Below, piece by piece: positions 4,215 to 27,471 of a stretch of 64,000 bases of DNA. How positions within the stretch are numbered: position 1 is the stretch's first letter; every line of letters begins with the position of its first letter. A program made the position numbers and the translations under genes. A model generated the notes under the pieces. It did no database searches, was not told the DNA's origin, and saw nothing but the letters and a program-made list of their open reading frames with translations. Source of the stretch: Myxococcales bacterium (GTDB lineage: Bacteria; Myxococcota_A; Polyangia; Polyangiales; DASUME01); the NCBI GenBank assembly GCA_047601445.1, contig JASGJH010000001.1, positions 8,928,001-8,992,000 on the forward strand, given 5' to 3'.

Positions 4215-5222
4215 TTGTCTCTTCTTGAAATCGCGCGCGATCAGGGCTTTGCGAGAGCCGAAGACACGCACGTCGGTCTGATGGACCGGGTCGCCGAGGA
4301 GGCTCGGGAGACCTTCCTTCAGCAGGCTGAAGCCATCGCTGCCATGGCCCAGCGGGTCGACCGCAGCTTTGGCCGAGCGGTCAGCCTCCTCTACGCCACC
4401 CCCGGCCACGTGATCACCATGGGCATGGGCAAGTCCGGCCACGTGGCTCGCAAGATCGCCGCCACCCTCGCTTCCACCGGCACCCCGTCCTTCTTCGTTC
4501 ACCCCGCGGAGGCCTTCCACGGCGACCTCGGCATGGTGACCGATCGTGATACGGTCCTGGTCTTCTCCTACAGCGGTGAGACCGAAGAGGTCCTGCGGCT
4601 GCTGCCGCACCTCAAGCGTGCTGGCGTGTCGGTGGTGGCCCTGGTTGGTTGCACCGAGTCCACCCTGGCGCGCGCCGCTCACGTGGCGCTCGACGTCTCG
4701 GTGGAGCGCGAGGTTTGTCCCAACAACCTGGCGCCCACGAACTCCACCCTGGCCGCGCTGGCCATGGGCGATGCCCTGTCGGTGGCCCTGATGCGCGCCA
4801 AGCAGTTCGGCGCCGAGGACTTCGCTCGTTTCCATCCCGGTGGCGCGCTCGGTAAGCGCTTGCTCACCCGGGTTTGCGACGTGATGCACCGTGGCTCGCT
4901 GCCCCTGGTGCGCCTCGACACGACCGTCCGCGAATCGCTGTTCACCATCACCCGCGGCCGTTTGGGCCTGGCTTTGGTGATCAAGGGCAAGTCCCTGCAA
5001 GGCATCGTGACCGACGGCGATCTGCGTCGCTCGATGCAGAAACACGAAGATGTGCTCGACCTGCCCGTGCAGGCCGTCATGAGCCCCAACCCGGTTTGCA
5101 TCAGCGAACACGCGCTCTTGAGCGAGGCCGAGGAGCTGATGCGCCAGCGCAAGCTCAAGGCACTGGTGGTGGTGGACGGTGCCGGTCGCCCGGTGGGAAT
5201 CGTCGAGATCTTCCAGCGCTAG
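4215..5222 (+). CDS. kpsF: Arabinose-5-phosphate isomerase, KpsF/GutQ family (SIS + CBS domains)
   Basis: GMGKSGHVARKIAATLASTGTP, HPAEAFHGDLG, NNLAPTNST, FHPGGALG and GIVTDGDLRR. TTG start preceded by GAGGA. Confidence 0.95.
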   Translation: MSLLEIARDQGFARAEDTHVGLMDRVAEEARETFLQQAEAIAAMAQRVDRSFGRAVSLLYATPGHVITMGMGKSGHVARKIAATLASTGTPSFFVHPAEAFHGDLGMVTDRDTVLVFSYSGETEEVLRLLPHLKRAGVSVVALVGCTESTLARAAHVALDVSVEREVCPNNLAPTNSTLAALAMGDALSVALMRAKQFGAEDFARFHPGGALGKRLLTRVCDVMHRGSLPLVRLDTTVRESLFTITRGRLGLALVIKGKSLQGIVTDGDLRRSMQKHEDVLDLPVQAVMSPNPVCISEHALLSEAEELMRQRKLKALVVVDGAGRPVGIVEIFQR

Positions 5223-5238
5223 GCTAAGCTGACCTGCC

Positions 5239-6021
5239 ATGAGTCTCGCGCGGGGAGCGTTCATCCAGCTCAATGTGATCCACGCGCTGGTGCTCCGAGA
5301 GACGCGCACACGTTTCGGAGAGCATCAGCTCGGATATCTGTGGGCGCTGATCGAGCCACTGCTGTGGATCGGCAGCTTTTGGGGCCTCTACACGGTGAGC
5401 AATCGCCCCGCGCCCCACAACCTCGAGGTCACGGGCTTCCTCGCGACCGGGGTGCTTACCTACGAGATTTTCGATAGCAATGTCGGGCGCATCGGCGATT
5501 CCATCAACGGCAATCGACCGCTGCTCTTCTATCCTCCGGTGCAGCCGCTCGATCTGGTGATCGCTCGGGCTTCGTTGGAGACGGCGACCCTGACCGCGGT
5601 GTTTTTCGCGGTCATGGGCGGCGAGTCGCTGCTGCGCGGCGAAATCACCCATATCGATAGCCTATTGCAGGTCTTTCTGGGCATCGCGCTGGCCGCCATG
5701 CTCGGGGCCTCGCTCGGGCTGGTGCTCTGCATGCTCGGCGTGCTGTCCAATGTGGTCGAGCGCTTGCGCGGCCCGTTGATGCGTCCCTTGTTCTGGGTTT
5801 CAGCGCTTTTCTACACCCTGGATGACGTACCCACGGACGTGCGGGAGTTGATGCTGTACAACCCGGTCGTACACGTGGTCGAGATCGTGCGAGACGGCTG
5901 GTTCCATCAGTACACGGCCAAGCACGCCGATCCGCTGTATGTTGTCTGGTTCATCCTCGGCTTTGGCTTTCTCGGGCTGTTGCTCGAGCGGGTGGTTCGC
6001 CGAAAAATCGAGCTTTCATGA
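5239..6021 (+). CDS. kpsM: Capsule ABC transporter permease
   Basis: ALVLRETRTRFG..LGYLWALIEP and YNPVVHVVEIVR; about six hydrophobic segments; directly upstream of the ATPase gene. Confidence 0.92.
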   Translation: MSLARGAFIQLNVIHALVLRETRTRFGEHQLGYLWALIEPLLWIGSFWGLYTVSNRPAPHNLEVTGFLATGVLTYEIFDSNVGRIGDSINGNRPLLFYPPVQPLDLVIARASLETATLTAVFFAVMGGESLLRGEITHIDSLLQVFLGIALAAMLGASLGLVLCMLGVLSNVVERLRGPLMRPLFWVSALFYTLDDVPTDVRELMLYNPVVHVVEIVRDGWFHQYTAKHADPLYVVWFILGFGFLGLLLERVVRRKIELS

Positions 6022-6671
6022 TCGAGCTCAAGAACGTCTACAAGACCTACCCGACGATCACCGGGCCGAACGTGGTGTTGAACAACGCCTCCATCAAGTT
6101 CGCCGATCGTCAGAGCATGGGCATCTTGGGGCGCAACGGAGCCGGCAAGTCCACCCTGTTGCGGATCGTGGCGGGCGTGGAGCAACCGGACGGTGGAGAG
6201 ATCACGCGCACGGGGCGCATCTCGTGGCCGATCGGCTTCGGGGGCGGCTTCAGTCCCTCGCTCAACGGCGAGGAGAACTGCCGTTTCGTGGCGCGCGTGT
6301 ACGGTGAGGACGTGGATCGCGTGGTGGAGGCCACCCGGGCGTTCGCCGATCTCGGGACCTATTTTTACATGCCCATCCGTACCTACTCCTCCGGCATGCG
6401 AGCGAGGTTGGCGTTCGGCTTGAGCATGGCGGTCGACTTCGACATCTACCTGGTCGACGAAGTCACCGCGGTGGGCGACGTGCACTTCCAGGAGAAGTGC
6501 CGTCGTGCGTTCGATGAGCGGCGCGAGCGATCGTCGGTGATCATCGTCTCCCACAGCCTGGAGACCATTCACAGCTACTGCACGCAGTGTGCGGTGCTCA
6601 ACGCCGGCAAGCTCCGAGTCTTCGATAGCGTCGACGAAGCGGCCAAGGTGTACCAAGAGGTTTCTGCATGA
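6018..6671 (+). CDS. kpsT: Capsule ABC transporter ATP-binding protein
   Basis: GRNGAGKST, ISWPIG, YSSGMRARLAFGLSMA and DEVTAVGD. 217 aa with no C-terminal carbohydrate-binding domain. ATGA overlap with kpsM. Confidence 0.95.
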   Translation: MIELKNVYKTYPTITGPNVVLNNASIKFADRQSMGILGRNGAGKSTLLRIVAGVEQPDGGEITRTGRISWPIGFGGGFSPSLNGEENCRFVARVYGEDVDRVVEATRAFADLGTYFYMPIRTYSSGMRARLAFGLSMAVDFDIYLVDEVTAVGDVHFQEKCRRAFDERRERSSVIIVSHSLETIHSYCTQCAVLNAGKLRVFDSVDEAAKVYQEVSA

Positions 6672-7363: not shown

Positions 7364-7372
7364 GGAGTATTC

Positions 7373-8206
<834 letters not shown>

Positions 8207-8209
8207 GCG

Positions 8210-9567: not shown

Positions 9568-12500
9568 ATGAAAGTCCTCTACTACCTCGAGCCGTACGTC
9601 GAATTCGGCAATCCGCTATTCCGCATGGCGACCATTCGCAATCATCTGGAGCCCGAGATCGCGGGCCTCCAGCTGGCGCGGGCGAGGGACGTTGAGGTGC
9701 GCCTCCTGTGCTCGGAGGCCGTGGCGGATGTGATTCGCGTCGAGGCTCGTTTGCCCGGTGTGCCTCTGGTGACCGTGGCGCAGGCCGAGTTGGAGCCGAT
9801 TTATCCGGAGTATCTCGAGGCGTCGGCGCGCTTCTACGAGGGAAACTACACCGGCGCAGCGCTCGAGCGCGCCATGGCATTGTACCGACGAAAGCTCGGG
9901 GCCTACGAGCCCGACGTGATCGTCTGCTACGAGTCCAACGCGCCGTTCCTGGCCAAGCTCTTTCCGCGCGCATTGTTCCTTCACAACACGCTCGGCATCT
10001 TTTCGAGAGCGCCGTTTCCGGAGACGTCTGCGCTCGATCCATTCGGTATCGGCAAGGACTCGTACCTCTCGCGCTGCGGCACCCAGCTCACGGCGCTCGA
10101 ACTCTCGGGGGCGCAACGAGCTCGGCTGGAGCGCTTGAAGGAGAGCGCGCAGCGCGCGCAGGTGGAGCGGAGCCCGCTTGCCCGGGCTGCTTTGCGGCAG
10201 GGGTACGAGCGCGTGGTGCTGCTGCCGCTGCAGGTCTCCAAGTACTTCATGTTCGACGAGAACCTCCCTGAAGAACTTCGGGGCGTCGACCAGCTGGGCC
10301 TGCTCGAGCGCGTGCTCGAAGGTGTCGACCGAAAGATCGGCGTGTGCGTTACCATGCATCGTTCGGAGGCGCGCTTGCTCACGCCGACGCGCTGCAAGGA
10401 ACTGCGCGCGCGCTTTCCCCACTTCCTCTACGACCCGGACGTGCAGCGGGTTCCCTGGCCTTCGCAGCACGTGCTTCCTCACGTGGACGGCGTGGTCACG
10501 GTCTCTTCGGCGGTCGGGCTCTTGGCGATGCTCTGGGATCTCCCGATCGTGGGCCTGGGGCGTTCGCACGTGGCCGCCATCGCATCCAGTCGTTCGCTCG
10601 CGGATTTGCCGAGCTTGCTCTCGAACCCACCGCACGGTGCCCGCGACGGGGCGCTCTATCATCTGCTCACGACCTACTACCCGCAGATGGACCGCTTCCA
10701 CCATCAAGGAGACTGGTATCGGGGCTTTCTGGCGGACTGTCACGCGCGCAAGGACGAGCCGTGTCGCCTCGGATTCTTCCGTGAGATCGCCGATCCGGAC
10801 CAAGTCTTCGAGGGCCTCATCCAGGGCCTGCGCGCCGACGAGGCGAACTCTGCAGCGAGCGCGACGTCCATGAAGGGCACGATGGGAACGAGCCAGGGTG
10901 GGGCGCTGCGCAGCAAGCTGCAGCAGGCGGACGTGGTGTCGTTCGACGTATTCGACACGCTGGTGACGCGCCCGCTCTCGGAGCCGAACGCGCTGTTCGA
11001 CTTGATCGCAGAGCCGGCCAGTCAAGCCTTGCTTCGTCATGGCGTGCGCATCGAGGACTTCGGCGAGTTCTCCGAGCTGCGCCGGCAGGCCGCCAAGCAT
11101 GCGTCGGCCGAGGCCCTCGAGAGCGGCTCCGAGGAATACAACCTCTTGCTGGTGTACGGGTGGTTGGTCCGCAAGCTCGGCGCTCCGCAGGCCTTGGTCG
11201 AGGAGCTCAAGGCCATCGAAGAGCAGGCGGAACTCACCATCGCGTTGCCGCGCGAGGCGGGGCGCGAGGCCTATCAGCAGGCGTTGAACCTGCGCAAGCG
11301 CGTGCTCTTGATCTCGGATACCTATCTGGATTCGCGCTTGGTGGCCGACATCGTGAAGCGCTGCGGCTACACGGGGTTCGAGCGACTCTTCGTGTCGTCT
11401 GACTTCGGCAAGCTGAAGCGCACGGGGAACCTCTACGGGCAAGTTCGGCTGCTGGTGGGGGCCGGGCAGCGTTGGCTCCACGTCGGAGATAACTCGCTCT
11501 CGGATGTACGCGTGCCGGAGCGGCTCGGGATTGGCGCCTATCATCTGTCGAGCGCCACCACGCACTACGCCAACGATCCGCTGGTGCGGGCTGCCTTGCC
11601 GTCCAAGCCTGGCACGAGCTTGGGCGCACGCATCGCAAGCGGCGTGATCGCGCGCAAGTTCTTCGACCGGCCTACCGCGAGTCCGCGAGAAGCCCGCTTC
11701 GACGGCAGCCCCTATCGACTCGGCTTCGAGGCGGGGGGGCCGCTCTTCCTGGGGTTCGCCAGCTGGATCCTCGAGGAGGCCCGGCGCGACGGCATCACGG
11801 ATCTCTATTTCCTCGCGCGCGACGGGCTCGTGCCGAAGCAGGTCAGCGAGCTCTTGCTCGAGGGCGGTGGGGAAGGGCCGGCGACGCACTACATCTGGGC
11901 CTCGCGTCGGGCCTATCTCACCGCGGCGCTCGAGACTCCCTCCGACGTGCTCTCGACCCTCGGCTTGCTCTTCCGCACCGCGACGGTGCGCAGCTTCTTC
12001 GGTGAGCGTTTCGGGCTCGAGGAAGCGGCGCTGGTGCCCGGATCGCTGAGCGCGGCGGGGTTCGGTTCCATCGATGATCCCATCGTTCAAGACGATGCCA
12101 CGGACATGGCACGCCTGCGCACGTTGGTGCTGGCCAATGTGGACGGCGTCCTCGCTCGTGCGAGCCAGGAGCGTGAGCTCTTGATGGGCTACTTGAGGGA
12201 GCGCGGACTGTTCGATCCGCACCGCAAGATCGCGCTGGTGGATCTCGGTCACAACGCGTCACTGCAGGTGGCGCTCGCGCGCCTCTCGGGCCGCAAGGAT
12301 CTCGTGGGGTACTACTTCGCGACCTTCAAGGGCGCGCGAGGTCCCTACCTGCAAGGGCACGCTCTGAAGAGTTACCTGATCGAGTTCGAGGACGCCGCGC
12401 GCAGCGATCATCCCTATGCCCGCAACCTGGGGGTCTTCGAGTTCCTGTTTCTGCCCCCCGAGCCTTCCTTCATGCGCTTCGAGCAGACGTCGCAGGGAGA

Positions 12501-12966
12501 GCGGCGGCCCGTGTTCGCCGAGGTCGACGAGCGGCCTCGCTTCGACGTGGTGCGGGAAGTGCAGCGCGGAGCCCTCGATTTTGCCAGGGACGCCGTGCAG
12601 GCCAGCCTCGGACAGCGGCAGGCGCTCGGCATGTCGAAGAACGAGGCGACGCGTTCTTTCGCCAAGTACTGCGTCGAGCCCGACTTGGCCGACGCCGAGC
12701 TGTTGAACGGTATCGGTTTCGCGAGCGGTCTCGGCAGTCGCGACGTGCACTACCTGATCGCGCCAGTGAGCTTCCACCAACACCGTGTCAATGAGAGCTG
12801 GTGGCGGATCGGCGCGGAGGTGGTGGTCGGTCTGCGGTCGAGCAAACCGAGCGCGCTGGGTGACGCGGGGGCCTGGAAGCGCAAGCTGCTGAAGCTCCAG
12901 CGCGATCCCGGGCGCTTCTTGTCGGACATGCGGCTCGTGCGCAAGTTGCGCGAGTTCGTGGACTGA
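9568..12966 (+). CDS. Multidomain capsule polymerase candidate: GT99/GT107-like beta-Kdo transferase + HAD phosphatase + PRPP-dependent ribofuranosyltransferase-like domain
   Basis: N-terminus has GIFSRAPFP...DPFG, LLPLQVSKYFMFD and DGVVTVSSAVG. HAD motifs SFDVFDTL, ISDTY and HVGDNSLSD. Then YFLARDG, ASRR and VDLGHNASLQ (PRT-like loop). Confidence 0.75.
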   Translation: MKVLYYLEPYVEFGNPLFRMATIRNHLEPEIAGLQLARARDVEVRLLCSEAVADVIRVEARLPGVPLVTVAQAELEPIYPEYLEASARFYEGNYTGAALERAMALYRRKLGAYEPDVIVCYESNAPFLAKLFPRALFLHNTLGIFSRAPFPETSALDPFGIGKDSYLSRCGTQLTALELSGAQRARLERLKESAQRAQVERSPLARAALRQGYERVVLLPLQVSKYFMFDENLPEELRGVDQLGLLERVLEGVDRKIGVCVTMHRSEARLLTPTRCKELRARFPHFLYDPDVQRVPWPSQHVLPHVDGVVTVSSAVGLLAMLWDLPIVGLGRSHVAAIASSRSLADLPSLLSNPPHGARDGALYHLLTTYYPQMDRFHHQGDWYRGFLADCHARKDEPCRLGFFREIADPDQVFEGLIQGLRADEANSAASATSMKGTMGTSQGGALRSKLQQADVVSFDVFDTLVTRPLSEPNALFDLIAEPASQALLRHGVRIEDFGEFSELRRQAAKHASAEALESGSEEYNLLLVYGWLVRKLGAPQALVEELKAIEEQAELTIALPREAGREAYQQALNLRKRVLLISDTYLDSRLVADIVKRCGYTGFERLFVSSDFGKLKRTGNLYGQVRLLVGAGQRWLHVGDNSLSDVRVPERLGIGAYHLSSATTHYANDPLVRAALPSKPGTSLGARIASGVIARKFFDRPTASPREARFDGSPYRLGFEAGGPLFLGFASWILEEARRDGITDLYFLARDGLVPKQVSELLLEGGGEGPATHYIWASRRAYLTAALETPSDVLSTLGLLFRTATVRSFFGERFGLEEAALVPGSLSAAGFGSIDDPIVQDDATDMARLRTLVLANVDGVLARASQERELLMGYLRERGLFDPHRKIALVDLGHNASLQVALARLSGRKDLVGYYFATFKGARGPYLQGHALKSYLIEFEDAARSDHPYARNLGVFEFLFLPPEPSFMRFEQTSQGERRPVFAEVDERPRFDVVREVQRGALDFARDAVQASLGQRQALGMSKNEATRSFAKYCVEPDLADAELLNGIGFASGLGSRDVHYLIAPVSFHQHRVNESWWRIGAEVVVGLRSSKPSALGDAGAWKRKLLKLQRDPGRFLSDMRLVRKLREFVD

Positions 12967-15254: not shown

Positions 15255-15447
15255 GAATCCCGCTGGCCACGGGACCTGCTAAGGGTGCCGGCGCAGCCGT
15301 GGTGCGGGCCTGCTGCCCGCGCGGATGCGGTTGGCGTTCACGGCGCCTTCTTGTTATCACCGCTGCTCCGTTTTCACTGCGCTCGAGCGGTGAGTTAAAG
15401 GCGCGATGCTTCACGACTTGCCCAGCTACCGTAGGCGTTGTCGGTCG

Positions 15448-17596
15448 GTGATTGGCCTCGAGGATCTCACGATGGTCCTGGCCGTCCGGCTGCACCAGGG
15501 CAATCCCTGGCTGCTCGACCGCATCACGGTCCTTCGCCAGCACTACCGTGAGCTTCCTGCCACCGTGGTGGTCGACTTCGGCTCGGCCGAGCCGTTTCGC
15601 TCGCAGCTCGCGTCCGTGTGCGCTGCGAACGGACTCATCTACGTCTTCGAGGACGACCAGGGGACCTACTCGGCGGCCCGAGCGCGCAACCTCGGTGCCC
15701 GGGCTAGCCAGACCGCGTTGCTGTTCTTCAACGACGTGGACTGCTTTGGCGAAGCCGACTTGTTCGAGCGCCTGGTGGAGCACGCCAATCGCCTCGAGAT
15801 GGGGAGCTACCTCGAGCAAGTGGTGAACCTGCCCGTGTACTCTCTGGGCGAGGACGAGACAAACGAAGTGTGGAGCGCACCGCCCGCCGTGCGCGGGGAG
15901 CTCCTGGCGCGCGGCATGATCCGCAAGGCCTACCAGCGCTTCGATACCCAGGCTTACCAGTACGTGGACCCGGCTTCGAACTTCTTCCTGATCCGGCGCG
16001 ACTTCTTCGAGCTGGTCGGGGGCTACAACGAGAGCTTCCGCGGACATGGTTCGGAGGACTTCGAGTTCTTCCTTCGACTCGCACACTACACCGATCAGTT
16101 TCCCTTGCCGGAAGCCTTCGAGCGCGACCTCTATTCGCCAGCCAACCCTGCTTTCTTCGGCCACAAGCTGTATCGCGGCTTTCGGCGCTACATGGAGTTG
16201 ATGGCCTTCCAGGCCGAGTGCGCCGGCCTGCGCGTCGCTCACCTCTACCACGCGCGCGGACAGGGCAGCTGGTACGAGCAGAAGGACCGCGGAAAACGCC
16301 GCTTTGCCGAGCAGATCGAGGGCTACCGCAAGAGCCCCAGCCAACTGCTCGAGCGTGACTGGCTGCCGCGCGAGAAGCGCGCGCTCGTCCTGCTCAAGCA
16401 CGAACAGCAATATCAGTACTTCCTGCCGTTGCGTCTGCTCGGCTACCGGCTGCAGCTCATGTTGTCAGGCGACGCCGAGAGCGAGGGGCGCGCACGCCAG
16501 GCGCTCGAGTCGGGGCAGGTCGACGTGGTGGCCGTGTTCAATCCCTACATGGGATCTCACAAGGAACTTTGGCCGTGGGTCGAGCGGGCACGGGCGAAGG
16601 GCGTGAAGCTCCTGGTCACCGACCGCGGCATGCTGCCGGAGAGCTGGTTCTTCGCCGAAGACATGCCCTACGGCGACTCCGAGTACACCCAGCTCGATCC
16701 CGCGCGCTGGCTCTTCGACGAGGAGGAACTGGGAGATCGCCCGCGAGTACGCGCGCACGCTGCGCAAGGGAGGGGTCACGCTCGAGCAAAACGGGGACTT
16801 CGAAGCCACGGTCGCCCGACGTAGGGGCCCGGCAGGGCAGCTCTGCGTGCTCATCCCACTGCAGCTCGACGATGACGTGGCAGTGACCTTTTTCCACGCC
16901 GCGCACGAGCCTTACGCCAAGTTCGTGGCCGACATCGCCCAGGTGGCCAAGGCGCATCCCCAGGTGCGCTTCCTGGTGAAGACGCACCCGCTCTCCAAGC
17001 GGCCCTTCGAGGCCCGCGCCGAGAACATCGTGGTGTGCGACAGCGATGACAACATCCATGCGCTGATCGAGCTGTGTGATGCCCTGGTCTGCTTCAACAG
17101 CGGCGTGGGCTTTCTCGGCTTGATCCACGAAAAGCCGCTCGTGACGGTGGGTAACGCATTCTACAACCTGCCTGGTACGGGGCAGCGTGCGAGCGCCTTG
17201 GCGCAAGCCTTGGCGCAGGTCGTGGCCCAGCGCAGCGCGCCCGAACCCGAGCTGATGACCCGCTATCTGGCCTGGCACCTCTTCCACAAGTACGCCTTCT
17301 TCAAGGCGACCTCCGAGATCCAGGAGCTGCGCACGCGCCGCGCCCATCACTACCGGAACCTGCTTCCTTATCAGCTCGCGGGAGACCAGCTGGCCTCGCT
17401 CCGCGCCTCGGTGGATTACCGCTTCGACCCCGCGTCTTACGCAGCGGGCAAGCTCGTGGTCTCGGCCAGCCCGCTCGCAGGGGGGGTCCGCCTCAGAAAC
17501 GAGGGCTCCTTGCTGCTGCGCAAGCTGCGCAAGCTGGCCCGAGACCCAAGGCGCTTCGCGCGCGATTCGAAGCTGGGGCGCAAGATCCTGGGGTGA
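15448..17596 (+). pseudogene. Frameshifted GT2 + KpsS/KpsC-like (GT107-type) bifunctional capsule protein
   Basis: ORFs 15406-16824 (VVDFGS, ARNLG, FNDVD, GGYNESFRGHGSEDFE, DRGMLP) and 16847-17596 (PLQLDDD, VKTHPL, NSGVG) join in one frame if one G is removed from GGG at 16731-16733. This may be a sequencing error. Start is approximate. Confidence 0.8.
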
Positions 17597-17611: not shown

Positions 17612-19333
17612 GTGGCGTCGGGGCATGCCTCTGCTACCGCCTTGGAACGAGGAACCTGCTTGCTTCGCCTTCTCGCAATCTGGTCTGGCTTGTTTCTGCT
17701 CCTGGTGGGCTGTGGCTTGTCGGTGGCGTTCGTCCTGGAGCGCTTGGGAGGGGATCGCTTTCGCAGACCCGTGACGACGACTCAGGCCTTCTGGTTCGGC
17801 TACGTGATCACGATCGCCTTTTTGCAGCTGTGGTCGCTGGCGTTTCCGATTCGGCTACCGGCCTTGCTGGTGCTCGTGGGCTTGAGCGCACTCGGGTTCT
17901 TCGTCTCGGGGGATCCGCTCCGAGCCCGGCTGCGGGCCTGGCGTCACCGACCCCGTCGCGTGTTGGCGTTGAGTGCGTTCACGATCGTCATCGCCGTCGT
18001 GGTGGCGTTGTATGCGGTTAACACGGTCATCTGGTACGACACGCACCTGTACCATCTGCAGGCCGTCAAGTGGGCACGCTTCCACCCGGCCATACCGGGC
18101 ATCGCCAACCTGCATAGTCGGCTGGCTTTCAACAACAGCATCCATCTGTTCGCGGCGATGACGGAGTCGTTCTGGAAGGCGCAGTCGTCCCATATTGCGC
18201 TCGGCTTCCTGACGACCGTCGTGCTCGTGCAGCTGGTCGCCCCACTGATCCAGCGCGTCGACCATCGTCAAGGTCGGCGCTCCGTGGCGTTCGCTCTGGT
18301 GATGGTGCCGTTCCTCCTCAGTCGCTTGCCGTCCCAGGAGGTCAACTCACTGTCCACGGATCTGGCGCTGGAGCTGCTCTGCATCGCATTCATCATGGAG
18401 CTCTTGCGCTTCGACTCCCGGCGCGAGGTTGGGCTGCAGCTCGCGCTCCTCTTGGGGCTGGCCGCGGCGGCCACGACCACCAAGCTCGGGGCGCTCGCGC
18501 TCGCGATGACGGGCCTCGCGCTCGCGGGGTTCGTGCTCCGCAAGGGAGGCCATGGCGCACGCACCCTGCTGGCGGTGGCTCTACCGTCCGCACTGGTCGC
18601 CGTCGGCTACGTCGCGCGCCATGGCGTGCTTTCGGGTTGGTTGCTGTTCCCGGTGCCGGTCGCTCAGCTGCCGGTGTCGTGGGCCTACGCGCGCGAAGAT
18701 GCGATCGCGTTGTTCCGTTGCATCGAAAGCTGGGCAAAAATCCCCGGTGTGACGCCTGATGAGGTCCTCGACCACGGCTTCCGGCACTGGTTCGATCCCT
18801 GGTTCAGGCGGATCCAGGGCTCGCGCGAGCTCTTGCTGCTCGCGATCAGCGTGCTGTTCGCGCTGCTGCGCTTCGCGTCCCCCCGCGGGAAAGCCTCGGT
18901 GGTCGATCGCTTTGCCATCGGCGGCGTGGCTCTGTCCCTCATGTTCTGGTTTCGCGGGGCCCCCGATCTGCGCTTCGGGGCGGTGTTCTTCTGGTTGCTG
19001 TTGGCCGTGTTGCTCGTCGAGCCTGTGGCCCGCATCTGCCAGACCCAGGCGGGGGCAGTGGTGGCGCTCGGCCTCAGCCTGGCGCTCGCCAACTGGGCAG
19101 GCGGCATCAGGGTCGGCTTCGAGCTCCCCGCGTCCCTGACCGACATTCCGCCGATCACTCCGATGGCCGCCACGAAAAAGGTCGAGCTGTCCCCGGGGTT
19201 GATCTCCTATGTGACCCTGGATGGTGGGGACCAATGCAGCAATTCCCCGCTACCCTGCACACCGTACCCCCTCGGGCAGCGGTTGCGGGAGGGCAAGAAC
19301 TTGAGGGCTGGTTTCCTGGCCAAGCCTCGCTAA
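17612..19333 (+). CDS. Polytopic membrane protein, LIC_10190-like / putative GT-C fold
   Basis: More than 12 hydrophobic segments; WYDTHLYHLQAVKW, PGIANLHSRLAFNNS, STD, GAPDLRF and the terminal CSNSPLPCTPY. Start is uncertain. Confidence 0.75.
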   Translation: MASGHASATALERGTCLLRLLAIWSGLFLLLVGCGLSVAFVLERLGGDRFRRPVTTTQAFWFGYVITIAFLQLWSLAFPIRLPALLVLVGLSALGFFVSGDPLRARLRAWRHRPRRVLALSAFTIVIAVVVALYAVNTVIWYDTHLYHLQAVKWARFHPAIPGIANLHSRLAFNNSIHLFAAMTESFWKAQSSHIALGFLTTVVLVQLVAPLIQRVDHRQGRRSVAFALVMVPFLLSRLPSQEVNSLSTDLALELLCIAFIMELLRFDSRREVGLQLALLLGLAAAATTTKLGALALAMTGLALAGFVLRKGGHGARTLLAVALPSALVAVGYVARHGVLSGWLLFPVPVAQLPVSWAYAREDAIALFRCIESWAKIPGVTPDEVLDHGFRHWFDPWFRRIQGSRELLLLAISVLFALLRFASPRGKASVVDRFAIGGVALSLMFWFRGAPDLRFGAVFFWLLLAVLLVEPVARICQTQAGAVVALGLSLALANWAGGIRVGFELPASLTDIPPITPMAATKKVELSPGLISYVTLDGGDQCSNSPLPCTPYPLGQRLREGKNLRAGFLAKPR

Positions 19334-19355: not shown

Positions 19356-20069
19356 ATGACTCACGGCATGAACGACTTGCGAAAGCTCTCAATCCTGATC
19401 CCGATCTACAACGAGAAGCGTTGGGTCGAGGAGATCGTACGGCGCGTGCTCGCGGCGGACTGTCGCGGACTCGAGCGCGAGCTGGTGATGGTCGATGACT
19501 GCTCGACCGACGGCACCAGCGACATCCTGAAGGCATTGGCCGCCAAACATCCCGAGATCAGCCTGTTCAAGCAGCCGGTCAACCAAGGCAAGGGCGCGGC
19601 GGTCCGCAGGGCCATCGAGGAAGCCACCGGTGATCTCATGTTGATCCAGGACGCGGACCTCGAATACGACCCACAGGACTACCCCACGCTGCTGCAGCCG
19701 CTCCTGGACGGCAAGGCCGACGCGGTGTTCGGGAGCCGATTCCTCGGGGGGCCGCATCGAGTGCTCTACTACTGGCACTCCGTGGGTAACAAGGTGCTCA
19801 CCACGCTGAGCAACATGTTTACCAACCTCAATCTCACGGACATGGAGACCTGCTACAAGGTGTTCCGCTCGGACCTGCTCAAGGGCATCAAGATCGAACA
19901 GCAGCGCTTCGGCATCGAGCCCGAGATCACGGCCAAGGCTGCCCGGCTCGGCGCCCGGATCTACGAAGTCCCGATCTCCTACGCTGGTCGCACCTATGCC
20001 GAGGGTAAGAAAATCGGTTGGAGGGACGGCGTGAAGGCCCTCTACTGCATCGTCCGCTACCGGGCCTGA
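19356..20069 (+). CDS. GT2 polyprenyl-phosphate glycosyltransferase (DPM1-like)
   Basis: IPIYNE, VDDCSTDGT, NQGKGAAVR, IQDADLEYDP, GSRF, TDMETCYK and GKKIGWRDG. Confidence 0.92.
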   Translation: MTHGMNDLRKLSILIPIYNEKRWVEEIVRRVLAADCRGLERELVMVDDCSTDGTSDILKALAAKHPEISLFKQPVNQGKGAAVRRAIEEATGDLMLIQDADLEYDPQDYPTLLQPLLDGKADAVFGSRFLGGPHRVLYYWHSVGNKVLTTLSNMFTNLNLTDMETCYKVFRSDLLKGIKIEQQRFGIEPEITAKAARLGARIYEVPISYAGRTYAEGKKIGWRDGVKALYCIVRYRA

Positions 20070-20221
20070 AAGCCCCGCGTCTCCGCCTGAGCCCGGCGTG
20101 GCCGCGCGTCGGCACCTACCAGGAATTCCCCGGGTAATTCGCCAGCCGAGGGCCCGTGCGCGGGTCTGCTTGTCGCGCTATAGCCGAACACGCTCGAGGG
20201 CTGAGCTGTAGGGGTTGGGCG

Positions 20222-21400
20222 ATGGCGAAAGGGACCGGAAAGCGCGGAAATTCAGGGTCGGCTGCTCACCCACAAGCAGAGTCGATCTCCGAGTCGCCGC
20301 TGGTGTCCGTCGTCATTCCTTCCTACAACCACCGCCGCTTCATCGGTAAGGCCGTCGACTCGGTGCTGCAGCAGTCGCACCAGAACGTGGAGCTCATCGT
20401 CATCGACGATGGCTCGTCCGACGGCTCGGCCGAGCTCTTGCGCGAGGCCTACGGCAGCGACCCTCGCGTGCAGCTACGGGCGCGGGAGAATCGCGGTGCC
20501 CACGCCACCCTCAACGAGGCGGTTGGGCTCGCACGCGGAGAGTTCGTCACGATCTTGAACTCGGACGACCTCTACCTTCCCACGCGCCTGGAGCGCTTGG
20601 TTCAGGCGGCGAGGCAGCACGGAGGCCACCCCTTCTTCGGCATCACCGGGGTGCGCATCGTCGACGAGCGCGATGAGCCGCTGCCCGTGAGCGGTCCCAC
20701 CCGCTACTACGCTTCGGTGCTCGACAAGTTCGAGGGACGTCCGGCGGCGGCCGCTTTCTGGGTCGGCAACCTCGCGATGACAACCTCCAACTTTTTCTTC
20801 TCGCGTGGGCTGCTGGAGAAGGTCGGGACCTTTGCCCCCCTGCGCTACACGCACGACTGGGATTGGGCGCTGCGTGCATCCGAGGTCGTGAGCCCGGTTC
20901 GGCTCGACGATGTGCTGCTTTGCTACCGTGTCCACGGCACCAACACCATCGCCGAGGGCAACATGTGGAAGCACGTGTCCGAGAACGCCTACGTCTTCGC
21001 CAGCGCCATCAAGCGCGCTGGCATCGAGCGCATGGCGGAGCGCGCTGGCGTGAGTCCTCACGAAGTCATGCAGGCCATGTTGGCCAACGAGAGCTTCGGG
21101 CCCGTCCCCACGCTGTTCTTGCTCGGCCTGGGCAAGTCTCCCGAGGAGCTCACGCAGCTGCTCGAGCGGGGCGCCCTGGAAGAGATGCTGCCCAAGCTGG
21201 TGGGGCGCTCACGGGTCGATACGGATCTCATGTTGTCGGCCGAACACCTGCGTCACAAGTTGGGTGACAAGCCGGCCCATGCGTCGCCGAAGCCCGCGGC
21301 CAAGAAGGCCAAGCCCAAGGGACCGCTCACCGCACTGCGCGCCGCGGGCAAGCGCGTGCGGAAGAGCTTGCGAAGCGCCCTCTCCGAGAAGCGCAAATGA
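20222..21400 (+). CDS. Glycosyltransferase family 2
   Basis: VSVVIPSYNH, IDDGSSDGS, ILNSDD, HDWDWALR and YRVHGTNT; basic C-terminal tail. Confidence 0.92.
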   Translation: MAKGTGKRGNSGSAAHPQAESISESPLVSVVIPSYNHRRFIGKAVDSVLQQSHQNVELIVIDDGSSDGSAELLREAYGSDPRVQLRARENRGAHATLNEAVGLARGEFVTILNSDDLYLPTRLERLVQAARQHGGHPFFGITGVRIVDERDEPLPVSGPTRYYASVLDKFEGRPAAAAFWVGNLAMTTSNFFFSRGLLEKVGTFAPLRYTHDWDWALRASEVVSPVRLDDVLLCYRVHGTNTIAEGNMWKHVSENAYVFASAIKRAGIERMAERAGVSPHEVMQAMLANESFGPVPTLFLLGLGKSPEELTQLLERGALEEMLPKLVGRSRVDTDLMLSAEHLRHKLGDKPAHASPKPAAKKAKPKGPLTALRAAGKRVRKSLRSALSEKRK

Positions 21401-24400
21401 CGATGACGCCGCCCGGCAAGGACCGCGTCACGACGCTGGACGTGTGGGACACGCTCTTGCGCCGGCGCTGTCACCCGGACGAGGTGAAGCTGGCCAGCGC
21501 GGATTTCGTGCGCATTCACCATGGCGCACGGCTGTTGCCCGAGTTCGCCAGCGCGTCAGCCATCTTTCAGCAGCGCAGGCAGGCCGAGATCCGCATCGGC
21601 AACAAGAACCGCGCGGAGGGCCACGACGACGAGTACCGCTTGATCGATGTTTGGCGTTCGGCGCTGACGGTGATGCTCAAGCCATCCGAAAGCGCCCTCT
21701 TGGAAGAGGTGGCCGCGGCTGCGCAGCGCAGCGAGCTCGCTTTCGAAGACCGCGTCACCTACGCCAATCCGTCGATCCGCGCGTTCCTGCAGGAGCAGGC
21801 CGTGTCGGAGGCGCATCTCCTGAGCGATTTCTACGTGGGAGGGGCCGACCTGCTGGAGTTGGTGCGACGCAAGCACCCTGGGCTCGCGCTGGCGGGGGCC
21901 ATGGTGTCGTGCGACGAGGGCGTGACCAAGCGGTCGGGACGCCTGTACCGCCGCTTCGAGCGCGTGTGCGAGATCGAGCCGGCCCAGCATCTCCACATCG
22001 GCGACAACCAGGAGAGCGACGTGCTGAGCGCGCGTCGGGTAGGGCTCACGGCACTCCACTATCAAGACGCTGTGGAGGAGCAGAAGCGGGCTAATCTGGC
22101 CAAGCAGTTCGAAGCGCGTATGAAGGGCGACTACTCGTCGTACTGGAAGACGCTGCGCTCACGGGGCGCGGCCAGCGCGGCGGCCGATGCACGTCACGAG
22201 GACCCTCGCTTCCAGTTCGGGGTCGAGCTCGCGCCTCTGTACGTGCTGTACGTGCTGTTCGCGCTCGAGCAGGCCGCTCGGGCCGGTGTCGACAAGGTTT
22301 ACTACTTCACCCGCGAAGGTGAGGTGTTGGCCCGCATTCATGCAGCGATCGCCGCGGCCTGTCCGGATCGTCAGCTGCCGGCGGCCGATCTCCTCGAGGT
22401 GAGCCGTCTGGCCACCTTCGGGGCTTCCATCGCCGGCCTCGAGTTGCCGGAGCTGAACCGCTTCTGGACCATGTACTCGCGGCACTCCGTCAACACGCTG
22501 CTGGTGTCGCTCGGGCTCGACCCCGCGGCCTACGCGGACCTGGTGTGGGAGGCAGGCCTCGATCCCGAGCAGCTGGTGATCGAGCCGTGGCGGGACCCGC
22601 GCTTCCTCGGGCTCCTCGAAAATCCCAGCTTCAAGTCCAAGGTGGAGGCCGGACTCGCGCGCCGTCGCGCGGACTTGATGGACTACTTCGGGCAACACGG
22701 GCTCACGCCGCAGAGCCGGCGCGCCGTGGTCGTCGAGATCGGCTGGCGCGGCACCATCCAGGACAACCTGGCCCGCATCTTCCCTGACGTGGAGTGGCAG
22801 GGCGTCTACCTGGCGCTGTTCCGCTACCTCAATACGCAGCCCGAAAACGCGCTCAAGACGGCGTTCCTGCTGAATGACAATCAGGGCGACACGGCCGAGA
22901 AGGTGCTGCGTCCACAGGCCCCGCTCGAGATGCTCTTCAACTCGGCCTCGGGCAGTGTCACGGGCTACGTGCGGGAAGGGGAGCGCGTGGTCGCCACCCG
23001 CAAGTCCGCCGAAGGCGAAGACCGTGTGTTCCATGCATTCACGGGAATGGTGCAGGAGGGGGTGCTGGCTTCCGTGCCGGGCATCGTGCACTTCCTGGAG
23101 GAGCGCGCGCTTTCGCCCCTGGAGCTGCGCATGCAAGCGCGGCGCATGGCGGAGGACTTGCTCAGCATGCCGCCTCGCGCCTTCGCGCGCGCCTACTTCG
23201 AGCTCGAGCACAACGAGACCTTCGGCGTCGGTGGCTTCGTGCGCAAAGAGGGGCAGCTGGTGCGCGACGTACTCAGGACCGGCTCCGCGAGCAAGGCTTG
23301 GAAGCTCCTGAGCGAACGGCCGAAAGAGAGCGGCTGGGTCGCAGGCTTCCATGCTGCACACTCGGGTGCAGGCGGGGCCGACGTCATCACGCGCCTCGCC
23401 GCGGGCCAGAAGGACCTCAAGCGCGTGCCCAAGTTGCTGGGCCGAATTTCGCGAGAGGTCTGGAAGGGCACCAAGAAGCGTGGACTGGTCCCGGTATTGG
23501 CGGACATTCGCGATGCCTTCGTGACCAAGCCTCAGCCGGCCCCCGAGAGCATTCGCATGATTCCGCTCGTGCAGACGGCCGAGCTGCAGAACGAGCACTT
23601 GCTGCGCTTCAACGAGGAAATGCTGTCGGCGCGTCGCGCGGCCAGCGGTCCGTTCGTGGTGGCGTGGCTCATCCCCGACATCGGATACGGTTCGGGCGGG
23701 CACATGACGCTGCTGCGCTTCGTGCGTCACTTCCGCAGCCTGGGCATCGTCAACAAGGTCTACGTGCACGGCAAGTCGCGTCACCGTGACCGCACCGCGC
23801 TCGAGAAGTTCGTGCGCACCAACTACGGCCCCATCGAAGGTATCGAGTTCTACGAGAACTCCGAGACCATCGACGACAGCGACATCCTGATCGCCACCCA
23901 CTGGACCACGGCCTACGAGGTGTTCCGCCAGGAGAACACGCGCTTCAAGGCCTATTTCATCCAGGACTTCGAGCCCCACTTTTATCCCAAGGGGTCGCTC
24001 GGCGTGTTCGCCGAGAACACCTACGCGATGAACCTGTACGGAGTGTGCGCGAGCCCCTGGCTGTTCGAGGTCGCGCAGCGCTACGGCATGCAGGCGTGCG
24101 GCTTCCACCTCGGGTACGAGCCCGAGACCTACTACGTCGACCCGCTCGCCGAGCGGGACCCGAACCGCGTGGTGGTCTACATGCGACCCAGCACGGAGCG
24201 CCGCGGCACCGAGCTCCTGCTGGCAGCGCTCCTCCTGGTTCAGCGAGAGCGTCCGCAGACGCGCATCTCCATCTTCGGGACCCCGAGCATTCCGGCGGTC
24301 GGGCTCAAGGCCGAGATCATGGGCTTGTTGAACGAGGAGCAGCTGCGTCGCCTGCACAGCGCCTCGGCCATCACCTTGCTCACCTCCCTCACCAACTACT

Positions 24401-24840
24401 CGCTGATGCCCATCGAGGCCATGGCTTGCGGCTCGGTGGTCATCGATCTCGATGTCGAGAGCATGCGGGCCACCTTCGGCATCGACGCCCCCATCAGCCT
24501 CGTGAAGCCGGATCCCCAGGCCATCGCGCGCGAGATCCTGGAGCTCTTGAACGACCGCGAAAAGCTGGCCGAGAAGTCGGCGGCTTGCATCGCCTATGCC
24601 CAGGGCTTCCAGTGGAGCCGTGCGTTCGACGAGGTGAGCTCGGCCCTGTTCGCGCAGTACTTCCGGGGCACCCTCGCCGACGCCCGTGGCGCCAAGCTCA
24701 GCGGCTTGGTGCGGCCGCGCGGGGGCACGCAGTTCTACTCGGTGCGCGCTGGCCAGAAGGTCGCGCTCTCGGACGACGAGGTGTCGGGAAGCGCCGAGCA
24801 GATCGACCCACGGACGCTGCTGGCCTTGCCGACGGGCTGA
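21397..24840 (+). CDS. Multidomain protein: HAD phosphatase + ribofuranosyltransferase-like domain + WsaF-like GT4
   Basis: TLDVWDTLLRR, LSDFY and HIGDNQESD; YFTREG and VEIGWRGTIQ; C-terminal GSGGHMT, ATHWTTAY, YFIQDFEPHFYP, RPSTERRG and EAMACG. Confidence 0.8.
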   Translation: MTMTPPGKDRVTTLDVWDTLLRRRCHPDEVKLASADFVRIHHGARLLPEFASASAIFQQRRQAEIRIGNKNRAEGHDDEYRLIDVWRSALTVMLKPSESALLEEVAAAAQRSELAFEDRVTYANPSIRAFLQEQAVSEAHLLSDFYVGGADLLELVRRKHPGLALAGAMVSCDEGVTKRSGRLYRRFERVCEIEPAQHLHIGDNQESDVLSARRVGLTALHYQDAVEEQKRANLAKQFEARMKGDYSSYWKTLRSRGAASAAADARHEDPRFQFGVELAPLYVLYVLFALEQAARAGVDKVYYFTREGEVLARIHAAIAAACPDRQLPAADLLEVSRLATFGASIAGLELPELNRFWTMYSRHSVNTLLVSLGLDPAAYADLVWEAGLDPEQLVIEPWRDPRFLGLLENPSFKSKVEAGLARRRADLMDYFGQHGLTPQSRRAVVVEIGWRGTIQDNLARIFPDVEWQGVYLALFRYLNTQPENALKTAFLLNDNQGDTAEKVLRPQAPLEMLFNSASGSVTGYVREGERVVATRKSAEGEDRVFHAFTGMVQEGVLASVPGIVHFLEERALSPLELRMQARRMAEDLLSMPPRAFARAYFELEHNETFGVGGFVRKEGQLVRDVLRTGSASKAWKLLSERPKESGWVAGFHAAHSGAGGADVITRLAAGQKDLKRVPKLLGRISREVWKGTKKRGLVPVLADIRDAFVTKPQPAPESIRMIPLVQTAELQNEHLLRFNEEMLSARRAASGPFVVAWLIPDIGYGSGGHMTLLRFVRHFRSLGIVNKVYVHGKSRHRDRTALEKFVRTNYGPIEGIEFYENSETIDDSDILIATHWTTAYEVFRQENTRFKAYFIQDFEPHFYPKGSLGVFAENTYAMNLYGVCASPWLFEVAQRYGMQACGFHLGYEPETYYVDPLAERDPNRVVVYMRPSTERRGTELLLAALLLVQRERPQTRISIFGTPSIPAVGLKAEIMGLLNEEQLRRLHSASAITLLTSLTNYSLMPIEAMACGSVVIDLDVESMRATFGIDAPISLVKPDPQAIAREILELLNDREKLAEKSAACIAYAQGFQWSRAFDEVSSALFAQYFRGTLADARGAKLSGLVRPRGGTQFYSVRAGQKVALSDDEVSGSAEQIDPRTLLALPTG

Positions 24841-25115: not shown

Positions 25116-26234
25116 GTGACCAACCAGCGCGGGGGCGATTTTGCGGCCCATGGGGGGCGGAAGCTCTTTTGCTTCGGCTTCCATCCCTGGAAGAGGGGCT
25201 ACGTGCGGCGCTACCTGGCGCACGAGGGCAACGCGCGCTTTGCGCGGACCGCGCTCGAGGCCTCGCTCAAGGGCTTCGACGCCGACAGCCGCATCGTCGT
25301 GTGGGGCTCCGGTGAGTCGGAGGACGTGCGGGATTTGGCCGCCCGCTACGACGTCCCGATCTGGCGCATGGAAGACGGCTTCCTGCGTTCCGTGGGCCTG
25401 GGCGCGGAGCGCTATACGCCCGCCTCGCTCGTGCTGGATCGCACCGGCATCTACTACAACCCGCAGACCACCAGCGACCTCGAAAAGCTGCTCGCCGACG
25501 GCATCTTCGGCAGTGCGGATCTCGAGCGTGCCCGCCTGCTCCGCGAGGGCATCGTGCGGCTGGCGCTCAGCAAGTACAACGTCGGCGATCGCACCGCGAG
25601 TTTGCCCACGGTGCCGGAAGGGCGCACCGCGATTCTGGTGCCGGGCCAGGTGCAGGACGACGCCTCGATTCGCCTGGGTTGCATCGACCTTCGGACCAAC
25701 CTGGACCTCTTGAAGGCGACCCGCGAACGTCGGCCTGACGCGTTCATCATCTTCAAGCCCCACCCGGACGTGGTGAGCGGCAACCGACGCGGCGCGGTCT
25801 CCGCCGAGGACGCGCGACGCTACGCCGACGTGGTGGTCGAGGATGCGCCGCTACCGGCTTGCCTCGGCCTCGTTCAGGAGGTCCACACGCTCACCTCCCT
25901 CGTGGGCTTCGAGGCGCTCATGCGAGGGCTTCGCGTCAACGCCTACGGCTTGCCGTTCTACGCCGGCTGGGGCCTCACCGAAGATCGCCATGCCCACTCG
26001 GGACGCACGCGGCGCCTCACGCTCGACGAGCTGGTGTGCGCGACCCTCATCCGCTATCCGCTCTACCTCGACCCGAACACGCTGCGCCCGAGCTCGCCCG
26101 AGCAGGTCGTGGAGGACCTGGCCCAGGCCGTGCGCGACGACAGAAACCGGCCCATCCAGATCTCTTGGCTGAAGCGTCACGCGCGCAAGGCTGGCAACGC
26201 TCTCAAGGCCATGTTGGGCCGGAATGGGCAGTAG
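25116..26234 (+). CDS. kpsC: KpsC-family beta-Kdo transferase, single-domain
   Basis: WKR, MEDGFLRSVGLG, DRTGIYY, SKYN, VPGQVQDDASI, KPHPDV and PFYAGWGLT. 372 aa. Confidence 0.92.
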   Translation: MTNQRGGDFAAHGGRKLFCFGFHPWKRGYVRRYLAHEGNARFARTALEASLKGFDADSRIVVWGSGESEDVRDLAARYDVPIWRMEDGFLRSVGLGAERYTPASLVLDRTGIYYNPQTTSDLEKLLADGIFGSADLERARLLREGIVRLALSKYNVGDRTASLPTVPEGRTAILVPGQVQDDASIRLGCIDLRTNLDLLKATRERRPDAFIIFKPHPDVVSGNRRGAVSAEDARRYADVVVEDAPLPACLGLVQEVHTLTSLVGFEALMRGLRVNAYGLPFYAGWGLTEDRHAHSGRTRRLTLDELVCATLIRYPLYLDPNTLRPSSPEQVVEDLAQAVRDDRNRPIQISWLKRHARKAGNALKAMLGRNGQ

Positions 26235-27471
26235 CGGCGTGTCTGCTCTCGAGCTCGGGGTGCGAAACGCGCTGCTGCTGCAGGGGCCGATGGGGCCCTT
26301 CTTCCGCCATTTCGCCGACGAGTTGCAGGCCCAGGGCATCCAGGTCACCAAGCTCAACTTCAACGCTGGCGACGCGCTCTACTTTCGAGGACCAGAGGCG
26401 CGCAGCTATCGCGGTCGGCTCGACGGGCTCGGCGCTTATTTCGAGCAGCTCATGCGCGAGCAGCGCATCGACGGCGTGTTCTTGTTCGGCGACGGGCGTC
26501 CGGTGCACCGCAAGGCCATCGAGGTGGCGCAGCGACTGGGCATCCGGGTCTTCGTGTTCGAGGAGGGCTACATGCGCCCGGACTGGATCACGCTGGAAGA
26601 GGGCGGCGTGAACGGTCACTCGTCGCTGCCCCGTGACCCGGCCTTCTATCGCGCCTTTTCCCACGAAGAGGTGCCGGAGGCCGTGCGCGTCAAGTCTAGC
26701 TTCGGGCGCGCGGGCTGGTTCTCCACCGCTTACTCCATCGCGCTCACGCTCGGCTTCTTCGCATACCCGTACTACCGTCACCACCGCCCGCTCAACGCCT
26801 TCGTCGAGGCCTTTCGCTGGGTGCGCGGCGGTCTGCGCAAGCAGATCTTCGTGCGGCGCGAGCGCGGGCTCACCGAGTGGCTCTCCGAGACACGGCACAA
26901 GCAGTTCTTCCTGGTGGCCATGCAGGTGCACTGTGACTACCAGCTCGTGCATTCTCCGTTCGACAGCGTGGAGCAGTTCCTCGAGCAGGTGATGGCGTCC
27001 TTCGCGAAGCACGCGCCCAAGACGCAGTCCCTTGTCATCAAGAGCCACCCGCTCGATCGACCCTACCGTGAGCACGGACCCTTGATTCGCCGCCTGAGCC
27101 AGCGCTTCGGCCTCGAGGGGCGGGTCACGCACGTGCACGACTTGCACCTGCCCACGTTGCTCCGACACGCGAGCGGCGTGGTCATGATCAACAGCACGGT
27201 GGGGCTGCAGGCGGTGCAGGCTGGCACTCCCGTGAAGGTGCTGGGGCACGCGGTCTACGACATGGCTGGCCTCACGTACCAGGGCTCGCTCGAGGCCTTC
27301 TGGCGCGATCCGGGCAGCGTCGATCTCGAGCTCTACAAGGGCTTCCGCGCGCACCTCATGCAGGCGAACCAGGCCAACGGCAGCTTCTATCGGCAGCTTT
27401 CACAGTCGCCCCTGAAGGCCGGCTTGATCTGGCCGCCGGCGCTCACGGACGGCTCGGCGATCAAGTCCTGA
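26224..27471 (+). CDS. kpsS: KpsS-family capsule biosynthesis beta-Kdo transferase
   Basis: LLLQGPMGPFF, FEEGYMRPDWITLE.GGVN, QVHCDYQ, KSHPLD, INSTVG and NGSFY. Confidence 0.94.
   Translation: MGSSGVSALELGVRNALLLQGPMGPFFRHFADELQAQGIQVTKLNFNAGDALYFRGPEARSYRGRLDGLGAYFEQLMREQRIDGVFLFGDGRPVHRKAIEVAQRLGIRVFVFEEGYMRPDWITLEEGGVNGHSSLPRDPAFYRAFSHEEVPEAVRVKSSFGRAGWFSTAYSIALTLGFFAYPYYRHHRPLNAFVEAFRWVRGGLRKQIFVRRERGLTEWLSETRHKQFFLVAMQVHCDYQLVHSPFDSVEQFLEQVMASFAKHAPKTQSLVIKSHPLDRPYREHGPLIRRLSQRFGLEGRVTHVHDLHLPTLLRHASGVVMINSTVGLQAVQAGTPVKVLGHAVYDMAGLTYQGSLEAFWRDPGSVDLELYKGFRAHLMQANQANGSFYRQLSQSPLKAGLIWPPALTDGSAIKS

Follow-up and report, generated by a model that had tools for sequence, protein, structure and literature searches.

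The kps locus and its shortened KpsE

The window analysed here is a 64,000-nucleotide stretch from the genome of a Myxococcales bacterium (G000; a 9.50-Mb single contig, completeness 98.7%, contamination 5.4%), and it carries a capsule-like kps locus in the order kpsF-kpsM-kpsT-kpsE-kdsA-kdsC-kdsB, a glycosyltransferase block and kpsC-kpsS. An earlier note, made from the sequence alone, had described this locus as a non-canonical group 2-like capsule system, and our profile and open reading frame (ORF) checks confirmed the placement of every kps and kds gene that it named. [quoted passage not shown] The locus thereby contains the KpsM/KpsT ABC transporter, the KpsS and the CMP-Kdo supply found in group 2/3 capsule systems. 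KpsM and KpsT are 49-66% identical to those of complete loci in relatives, and the GC content of the locus is level with that of the remaining window. The note had also pointed out that KpsE has only 231 aa, that KpsC has a single domain and that the 64 kb hold no KpsD or other outer-membrane polysaccharide export (OPX) gene. All of this holds: a scan of 53 long ORFs of the window found a Poly_export domain in none of them, and both above-cut-off PF02563 matches in the genome are far outside the window. The kpsE stop is 9 nt from the kdsA start, which leaves no space for a kpsD there.

The window's KpsE is a crown-less polysaccharide co-polymerase (PCP) of class 3, composed of a first transmembrane helix (TM1), the dome, strand beta4 and a second transmembrane helix (TM2). 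In the KpsE of Schlegelella thermodepolymerans the dome is reported to consist of residues 34-172 plus strand 322-329, with the crown between them, and a hairpin at the crown tip has been proposed to bind KpsD (PMC11041684). A profile of 22 short KpsE sequences aligns only to residues 11-176 and 320-373 of that protein (8TSH). In the KpsE of G000 the entire ~143-residue crown is missing, while the dome and the two membrane helices remain; judged from this alignment, the deleted segment is exactly the crown. In an AlphaFold model (pLDDT 79), TM1 and TM2 accompany a dome of four strands and the crown is missing; superposition of this model on 8TSH gives a VIA Z of 19.4 over 198 residues. The dome end is separated from beta4 by 19 residues, as compared to 159-162 in KpsD-bearing homologues. 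The lumenal L2 region is halved (18 residues versus 35-36 in full-length forms), and it spans 14-20 residues across the shortened forms measurable by the pattern used. Membrane-helix and dome residues conserved in 18 full-length KpsE proteins are mostly retained in nine shortened ones, with carousel and dome residues kept. Because 22 of the 32 homologues returned by a protein search are 221-265 aa long and carry the identical internal deletion, we exclude an assembly artefact or a gene-calling error as the origin of the short KpsE; the purifying selection described below agrees with this.

We also searched the rest of the genome for a normal kpsD, a full-length kpsE and the other half of kpsC, and none was found. 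Four relatives' KpsD sequences (tblastn, E 0.01) and the PF02563 and PF10531 profiles identified no KpsD orthologue in G000; no full-length KpsE occurs elsewhere in it, TIGR01010 matching only the mini-KpsE and a Wzc; and the PF05159 profile together with two KpsC-N queries found no KpsC-N module. The PF02563 search did return two other OPX genes above cut-off, one of them beside a 481-aa putative barrel. A third SLBB match was rejected as NuoF. These genome-wide absences are consistent with the earlier note's proposal that a Kdo-linked glycolipid would be exported by a different route or retained in the periplasm. The locus shares with group 2/3 capsule systems (E. coli KpsFMTEDCS; S. thermodepolymerans, 8TSH) KpsM, KpsT, KpsS, KpsF, the Kdo pathway, the PCP-3 membrane helices and dome, and an arrangement in which variable glycosyltransferase genes lie between conserved ones, but G000 differs in having no KpsD, no KpsE crown, half an L2 loop, no second KpsC module and no lipid A genes. 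Since KpsD, the crown and the two-module KpsC are all lacking, we do not class it as a group 2 member; by its gene content it appears to work like the inner-membrane half of such a system.

KpsD and the KpsE crown among relatives

To place these observations, 251 genomes of the order were sampled, of which at least 40 had a KpsE match (the first pass was strict) and 39 were analysed, one unpublished genome being set aside. A KpsD orthologue (E below 1e-100) was found in 26 of the 39, all with a full crown, while the crown is shortened in 10 of the 13 KpsD-less genomes. Crown length, defined as the residues between dome end and beta4, was measured for KpsD-bearing genomes in 14 fetched loci and five further ones, and by coordinate arithmetic in the remaining 12 genomes. 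It is 159-162 residues in 19/19 sequences from OPX-bearing loci, counting L038, where the neighbour was called kpsD by position and size only. In comparison, it is 16-120 residues in 9/9 measured KpsD-less genomes with a shortened gene: crown-less forms occur in G000 (19), G076 (16), G038 (17) and G047 (17), and intermediate forms in G006 (92), G153 (77), G161 (109), G198 (102) and G219 (120). In G083 a C-terminal kpsE fragment aligns to the mini form with no insert. A full crown without KpsD was seen in G166, G169 and G093; the contig ends after kpsE in both G166 and G169, and G169 encodes a 410-aa OPX beside kpsF on another contig. Weak KpsD matches in G038 and G322 proved to be OPX proteins of the Wza-like and class-3 types. 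Within the genus of G000, a KpsD orthologue was found in none of 10 genomes, the best match reaching E 5.5e-10. In all 14 fetched KpsD-bearing loci kpsD lies after kpsE, in G022 at a distance of 6 kb, and a two-module KpsC is present in most of them; the ancestral locus, as seen in these relatives, is one with full KpsE, kpsD and two-module KpsC. As side observations, the G175 locus retains kpsD while its kpsE (L053:8390-9694) is apparently frameshifted, and closely similar full kpsMTED loci (L009, L011, L038) lie on contigs labelled gammaproteobacterium and archaeon.

The pattern extends beyond the order. In a phylum sample KpsE was matched in 17 of 401 genomes, which added four genomes outside the order; KpsE coordinates predicted a KpsD only in G451, and a search of the four agreed. 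Here G322 is crown-less, with kpsE next to kdsA, and G520 and G550 are intermediate. Of the best 150 clusters at 50% identity, 141 were measurable and comprised 19 crown-less, 68 intermediate (52-120) and 54 near-full (143-173) forms, in an unfiltered search whose profile favours short forms and whose proteins come without genomic context and mostly from metagenomes (20 looked up).

On a tree of KpsM, KpsT and the dome for 33 loci, including 13 short forms of which six are crown-less, short and full crowns interchange at least five times. Approximately unbiased (AU) tests, for groups that were defined ahead of testing, though with a first tree already inspected, rejected a single clade of the 13 short forms (p=2.5e-5) and of the six crown-less forms (p=6e-8), giving the latter at least two origins; an earlier 30-row tree without the dome had given p=0.002 and three changes. 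According to these trees, the paired loss of KpsD and crown arose several times.

The mini-KpsE is under purifying selection in close pairs. When G000 is paired with three close relatives, the NG86 method gives a ratio of nonsynonymous to synonymous divergence (dN/dS) of 0.16-0.19, and two other close pairs have 0.10-0.16; close pairs with G000 give 0.03-0.11 for KpsT and 0.07-0.14 for KpsM. These values bear on the idea of a decaying capsule system, in which KpsD has been lost, the rest is eroding and there is no useful product. The graded crown lengths (120, 109, 102, 92, 77 and 19-16), a frameshift in one glycosyltransferase, degenerate KpsC-N modules in G006 and G219, and the failure to find kps genes in 4/9 same-genus genomes would all suit such decay. 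However, kpsE, kpsM, kpsT and kdsA are under purifying selection, all core genes are intact with their catalytic motifs present, and the deletions preserve the reading frame and leave the dome untouched. Moreover, the many crown-less and intermediate clusters at 50% identity indicate long persistence. We therefore regard decay as very improbable.

KpsD-less loci with a crown-less KpsE are real and recurrent. We found no description of a crown-less KpsE or of natural KpsD-less loci in a full-text literature search that covered few subscription papers, and the text of a survey of 61 myxobacterial genomes available to us lists only two class-2 OPX proteins and mentions no KpsD-less kps locus (PMC9603273). 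In these relatives nature provides a series: KpsD disappears on several occasions, after which the crown of KpsE is trimmed from the tip down. The crown is constant at 159-162 residues where KpsD is kept and short where it is lost, which lends comparative support to the crown as a KpsD-docking spacer, and the crown-less proteins offer natural chimera partners for studying dome and membrane-ring function. Such loci depart from the rule that KpsD and KpsE are both mandatory for ABC-dependent capsules, as in the CapsuleFinder model (PMC5542703), and kpsD-requiring detection tools would miss them.

The predicted Kdo linker and the glycosyltransferase block

The earlier note's complete Kdo pathway is borne out by the above-cut-off kdsA, kdsC and kdsB together with kpsF. 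By blastp against all genome ORFs these four genes are single-copy, and so constitute the genome's only CMP-Kdo pathway. The window's KpsC (372 aa) is a lone C-module, with one PF05159 module and intact QVQDD and KPHP motifs. Its best match in the PDB is 6MGD, the C module of Thermosulfurimonas dismutans (217 bits, as compared to 149 for the N module, 6MGB), and it scores 270-379 bits to the C modules of six relatives versus 121-169 to their N modules. Therefore it is predicted to be a beta-2,7 Kdo transferase. In T. dismutans the C module is likewise reported as its own polypeptide (PMC10148158), but that organism keeps both modules, while of the pair (beta-2,4 and beta-2,7) G000 has only the C module, the N module being found neither fused nor split off. 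With the transfer specificities reported for KpsS and KpsC (PMC10148158), KpsS and a lone KpsC-C would be expected to stop at two Kdo rather than the usual 5-9, on a phosphatidylglycerol-oligo-Kdo anchor predicted from KpsS/KpsC homology.

A lone C module adjoining kpsS also occurs in G076, G083 and G047; the corresponding region of G038 is not assembled. The coupling of short KpsE to single-domain KpsC that the earlier note raised thus applies to G000, G076, G083 and G047 but not to G153 and G161, which have no KpsD and yet keep both KpsC modules. The change in KpsC is for this reason separate from, and narrower than, the loss of KpsD. In four KpsD-bearing loci (L013, L023, L053, L063) both KpsC modules and KpsS are fused into one protein of ~1,100-1,125 aa.

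Between kdsB and kpsC lies the glycosyltransferase block, which differs widely between close relatives and whose domains predict a ribofuranose-containing chain. Two of its products are likely polymerases, each with a two-domain ribofuranosyltransferase. The first (9568..12966, +, 1132 aa) joins a GT107/GT99-like N-domain to a phosphoribosyl phosphatase and a phosphoribosyltransferase (Bcs3 E 2.5e-18; 7SHG E 2e-6). The second (21397..24840, +, 1147 aa; PF21374/PF22772) joins a ribofuranosyltransferase module to a C-terminal WsaF-like GT4 (7SHG E 3.8e-20; WsaF E 4e-7). The order of domains in the first is that of the reported K13 polymerase KrkA (PMC12887879) and of Hib Bcs3, in which a CMP-sugar-transferase-like N-domain precedes a two-domain ribofuranosyltransferase. 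Unlike in KrkA and Bcs3, the QxxxD aspartate and the HP motif are not conserved in its N-domain, leaving the donor uncertain; this domain has no PDB sequence match, and part of the members among its Atlas neighbours carry PF05159/PF21912 (GT99).

The third candidate among the several polymerases proposed earlier is a GT2-GT107 fusion (15406..17596, +), split by a +1 frameshift near 16733 that is either a sequencing error or real. The QLDDD and KTHP motifs of the fusion are intact, its G076 orthologue is one 732-aa ORF (67%/59% identical), and an intact, isolated paralogue of 786 aa (47% identity; G000:C1:2351145-2353505) could complement it. Two GT-B-like glycosyltransferases on the reverse strand (12976-14106, with weak NCBIfam matches only; 14103-15254, PF13524/PF13692) both have orthologues in the G076 locus.

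The cluster also encodes a GT-C-fold membrane protein of the DUF8201/LIC_10190 family (17660..19333, +), absent from the earlier note. Its model (pLDDT 93) has GT-C-fold membrane proteins as all of its top 20 VIA matches (ArnT Z 14.3), which makes a periplasm-facing glycosyltransferase likely. At this position G076 and G047 carry other multi-pass membrane proteins (DUF7657/DUF7654). Downstream lie a short GT2 of 237 aa resembling polyprenol-phosphate-sugar synthases (19356-20069, +) and, after it within 19356..21400 (+), a GT2 of 414 aa, while just past kpsS is a GtrA-family flippase gene (28206..28613, -; PF04138 E 1e-14; start codon inferred). The GtrA flippase would round off a three-component set for periplasmic glycosylation, the other two members being the short GT2 and the GT-C protein. 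The kps glycan may be the acceptor of this set, but other glycan pathways lie in the window as well. From 29474 to 49075 runs a second glycan region with a GDP-mannose dehydratase, two Wzx-type flippases and pseudaminic-acid-type genes (a PseG-like gene, a NeuB+GNAT fusion, a cytidylyltransferase and aminotransferases), and from 49089 to 56108 a 1054-aa methyltransferase-GT2-GT2 fusion is encoded between two DUF2142 membrane proteins. The kps locus of G076 contains a 1049-aa protein of the same domain make-up as this fusion. On the other side of the locus, divergent from kpsF, a protein of 549 aa that neither Pfam nor NCBIfam matches is encoded at 2339-3988 (-); this gene and a glutamate dehydrogenase gene keep their position in G076 and G006 (58-65% identity).

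Predicted destination of the glycan

Our preferred interpretation, to which we assign a probability of roughly 45%, is that KpsMT with the crown-less KpsE moves a phospholipid-Kdo-linked glycan across to the inner membrane's periplasmic leaflet, where the glycan stays. In this scheme KpsF and KdsA/C/B would supply CMP-Kdo as sole copies and with no lipid A genes competing for it; KpsS would add one Kdo to phosphatidylglycerol; the lone KpsC-C would add a second in beta-2,7 linkage, producing a two-Kdo linker to which a GT107 fusion protein may add more Kdo; and the variable glycosyltransferases would build the chain. KpsMT, likely ringed by the membrane helices and dome of the mini-KpsE, would then flip this chain, which without crown and KpsD would emerge into the periplasm, where the GtrA/GT2/GT-C set could decorate it. 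The closest precedent is an engineered one: in E. coli, KpsMT alone is reported to move capsule across the inner membrane, and capsule collects in the periplasm when KpsD or KpsE is missing (PMC11041684). Both situations have KpsMT without a trans-envelope conduit. In the E. coli work, however, the polymer was seen in the periplasm on the inner membrane of a laboratory mutant, while in G000 the location is predicted from gene content and the KpsD-less state is natural, recurrent and under purifying selection. Two reports (PMC11041684; PMC12220298) state that it is not known whether the lipid anchor of ABC-dependent capsules is retained in the inner membrane or passes to the outer membrane. A periplasmic product, if confirmed, would be an undescribed envelope glycolipid.

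Several observations weigh against retention in the periplasm or the evidence behind it. Variability of glycosyltransferases would be usual for surface antigens rather than for hidden periplasmic polymers, and G000 encodes two further OPX proteins as well as four lipid bridges of the TamB family. The DUF8201 GT-C gene was found in only one of 34 genomes searched (G000), and for that reason we rejected it as a conserved replacement part. G093 keeps a full crown without KpsD, its kpsE being followed directly by kdsA, which is either a true exception or an assembly gap. Phylogenetically independent pairs gave four agreeing, none opposing and one tie, a comparison with little power (p=0.125), and distant mini-KpsE pairs have dN/dS of 0.25-0.67 with dS near saturation. 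The four same-genus genomes in which no kps genes were found are 72-90% complete, and single absences are uncertain in general because most relatives are fragmented metagenome assemblies.

A possible but clearly less probable alternative is that the glycolipid, once released to the periplasmic leaflet, is carried on to the outer membrane by a lipid pathway that needs no OPX (TamB/AsmA-like bridges, for instance) and acts as a surface glycolipid of cells lacking lipopolysaccharide (LPS). Profile searches of G000 returned neither LpxC nor LptF/G, and WaaA gave nothing above cut-off, so that neither lipid A ligation nor the Lpt bridge is available; the ABC-dependent O-antigen route (Wzm/Wzt, with lipid A ligation and Lpt export) was rejected on this ground. 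An LptD search, which gave no match even in a genome with lpxC, is not informative here. As an observation on the order, lpxC occurs in only 2 of the 24 Polyangiales genomes tested and LptF/G in none of 11, the two lpxC-bearing ones included, and the absence of LPS looks widespread there; a single LptF/G match in G038 comes from an assembly with 7% contamination, where it lies on a contig of 1.7 kb. Some Polyangiales lack LPS, and Sorangium cellulosum is reportedly LPS-free. Lipid A-free diderms have been noted more generally (PMC9393093).

The surface route gains from the failure to find lpxC in 12/13 KpsD-less, short-crown genomes, from the four TamB-family genes and from a glycosyltransferase region that varies like a serotype locus; a two-Kdo linker would also make for a smaller cargo. 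Indeed, in enterobacterial common antigen (ECA) a phosphoglyceride-linked form is reported to reach the outer membrane while a cyclic form is kept in the periplasm, by mechanisms called unknown (PMC12212991), although ECA, unlike the product of a kps locus, is assembled on undecaprenyl phosphate by Wzx/Wzy, lacks a Kdo linker and has a conserved structure. On the other hand, lpxC was not found in 10/12 KpsD-bearing genomes either and is present in KpsD-less G550; therefore LPS loss does not explain the loss of KpsD. TamB genes are general (5/5 genomes tested and 6/14 controls), no transporter gene travels with the locus, and the structural report describes no lipid-extraction mechanism in KpsMT-KpsE (PMC11041684). 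Should the product nevertheless be exposed, this would be an OPX-independent route in bacteria without LPS. A broader and slightly more doubtful version is that Myxococcota repeatedly turned KpsMT and crown-less KpsE into a glycolipid flippase, whose Kdo-anchored, serotype-like product would reach the LPS-free surface without OPX and replace O-antigen; if true, this would add a new mode of assembly for surface glycans of Gram-negative bacteria.

We consider it unlikely that the chain exits through one of the other OPX proteins by lateral entry from the periplasm, in spite of both candidates being present in G000, some OPX occurring in 16/16 genomes tested, and the nascent Vi capsule being reported as periplasm-exposed during export (PMC6003464). 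The first candidate, one of the two G000 genes above the PF02563 cut-off, is a 200-aa class-3 type (Poly_export+SLBB) at 2.14 Mb, ~6.8 Mb from the kps locus in genome coordinates, and adjoins the 481-aa protein, which has no Pfam match and is only a putative barrel. A class-3 OPX with a beta-barrel is reported to cross the outer membrane of myxobacteria without a membrane-spanning OPX (PMC9603273), but that system still relies on an OPX together with a PCP of the Wzc type and an adjacent barrel. The kps locus and its surroundings hold none of these, neither OPX nor barrel gene is encoded with the kps pathway, and the 200-aa OPX sits in its own, separate cluster with Wzc. The same two OPX types occur in KpsD-bearing genomes, the mini-KpsE lacks the surface for OPX docking, and cognate PCP-OPX pairing has been reported for group 2 systems. 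The second candidate, a stand-alone Wza-like lipoprotein at 1.31 Mb (G000:C1:1306598-1307869), was rejected as a general KpsD substitute, as its type was not found in KpsD-less G153, G161 and G219 and is present in KpsD-bearing genomes. As regards its surroundings, this Wza-like gene has no PCP or polysaccharide genes adjacent to it and is conserved beside an ABC1/UbiB-family kinase gene throughout the genus (L074-L077, L079).

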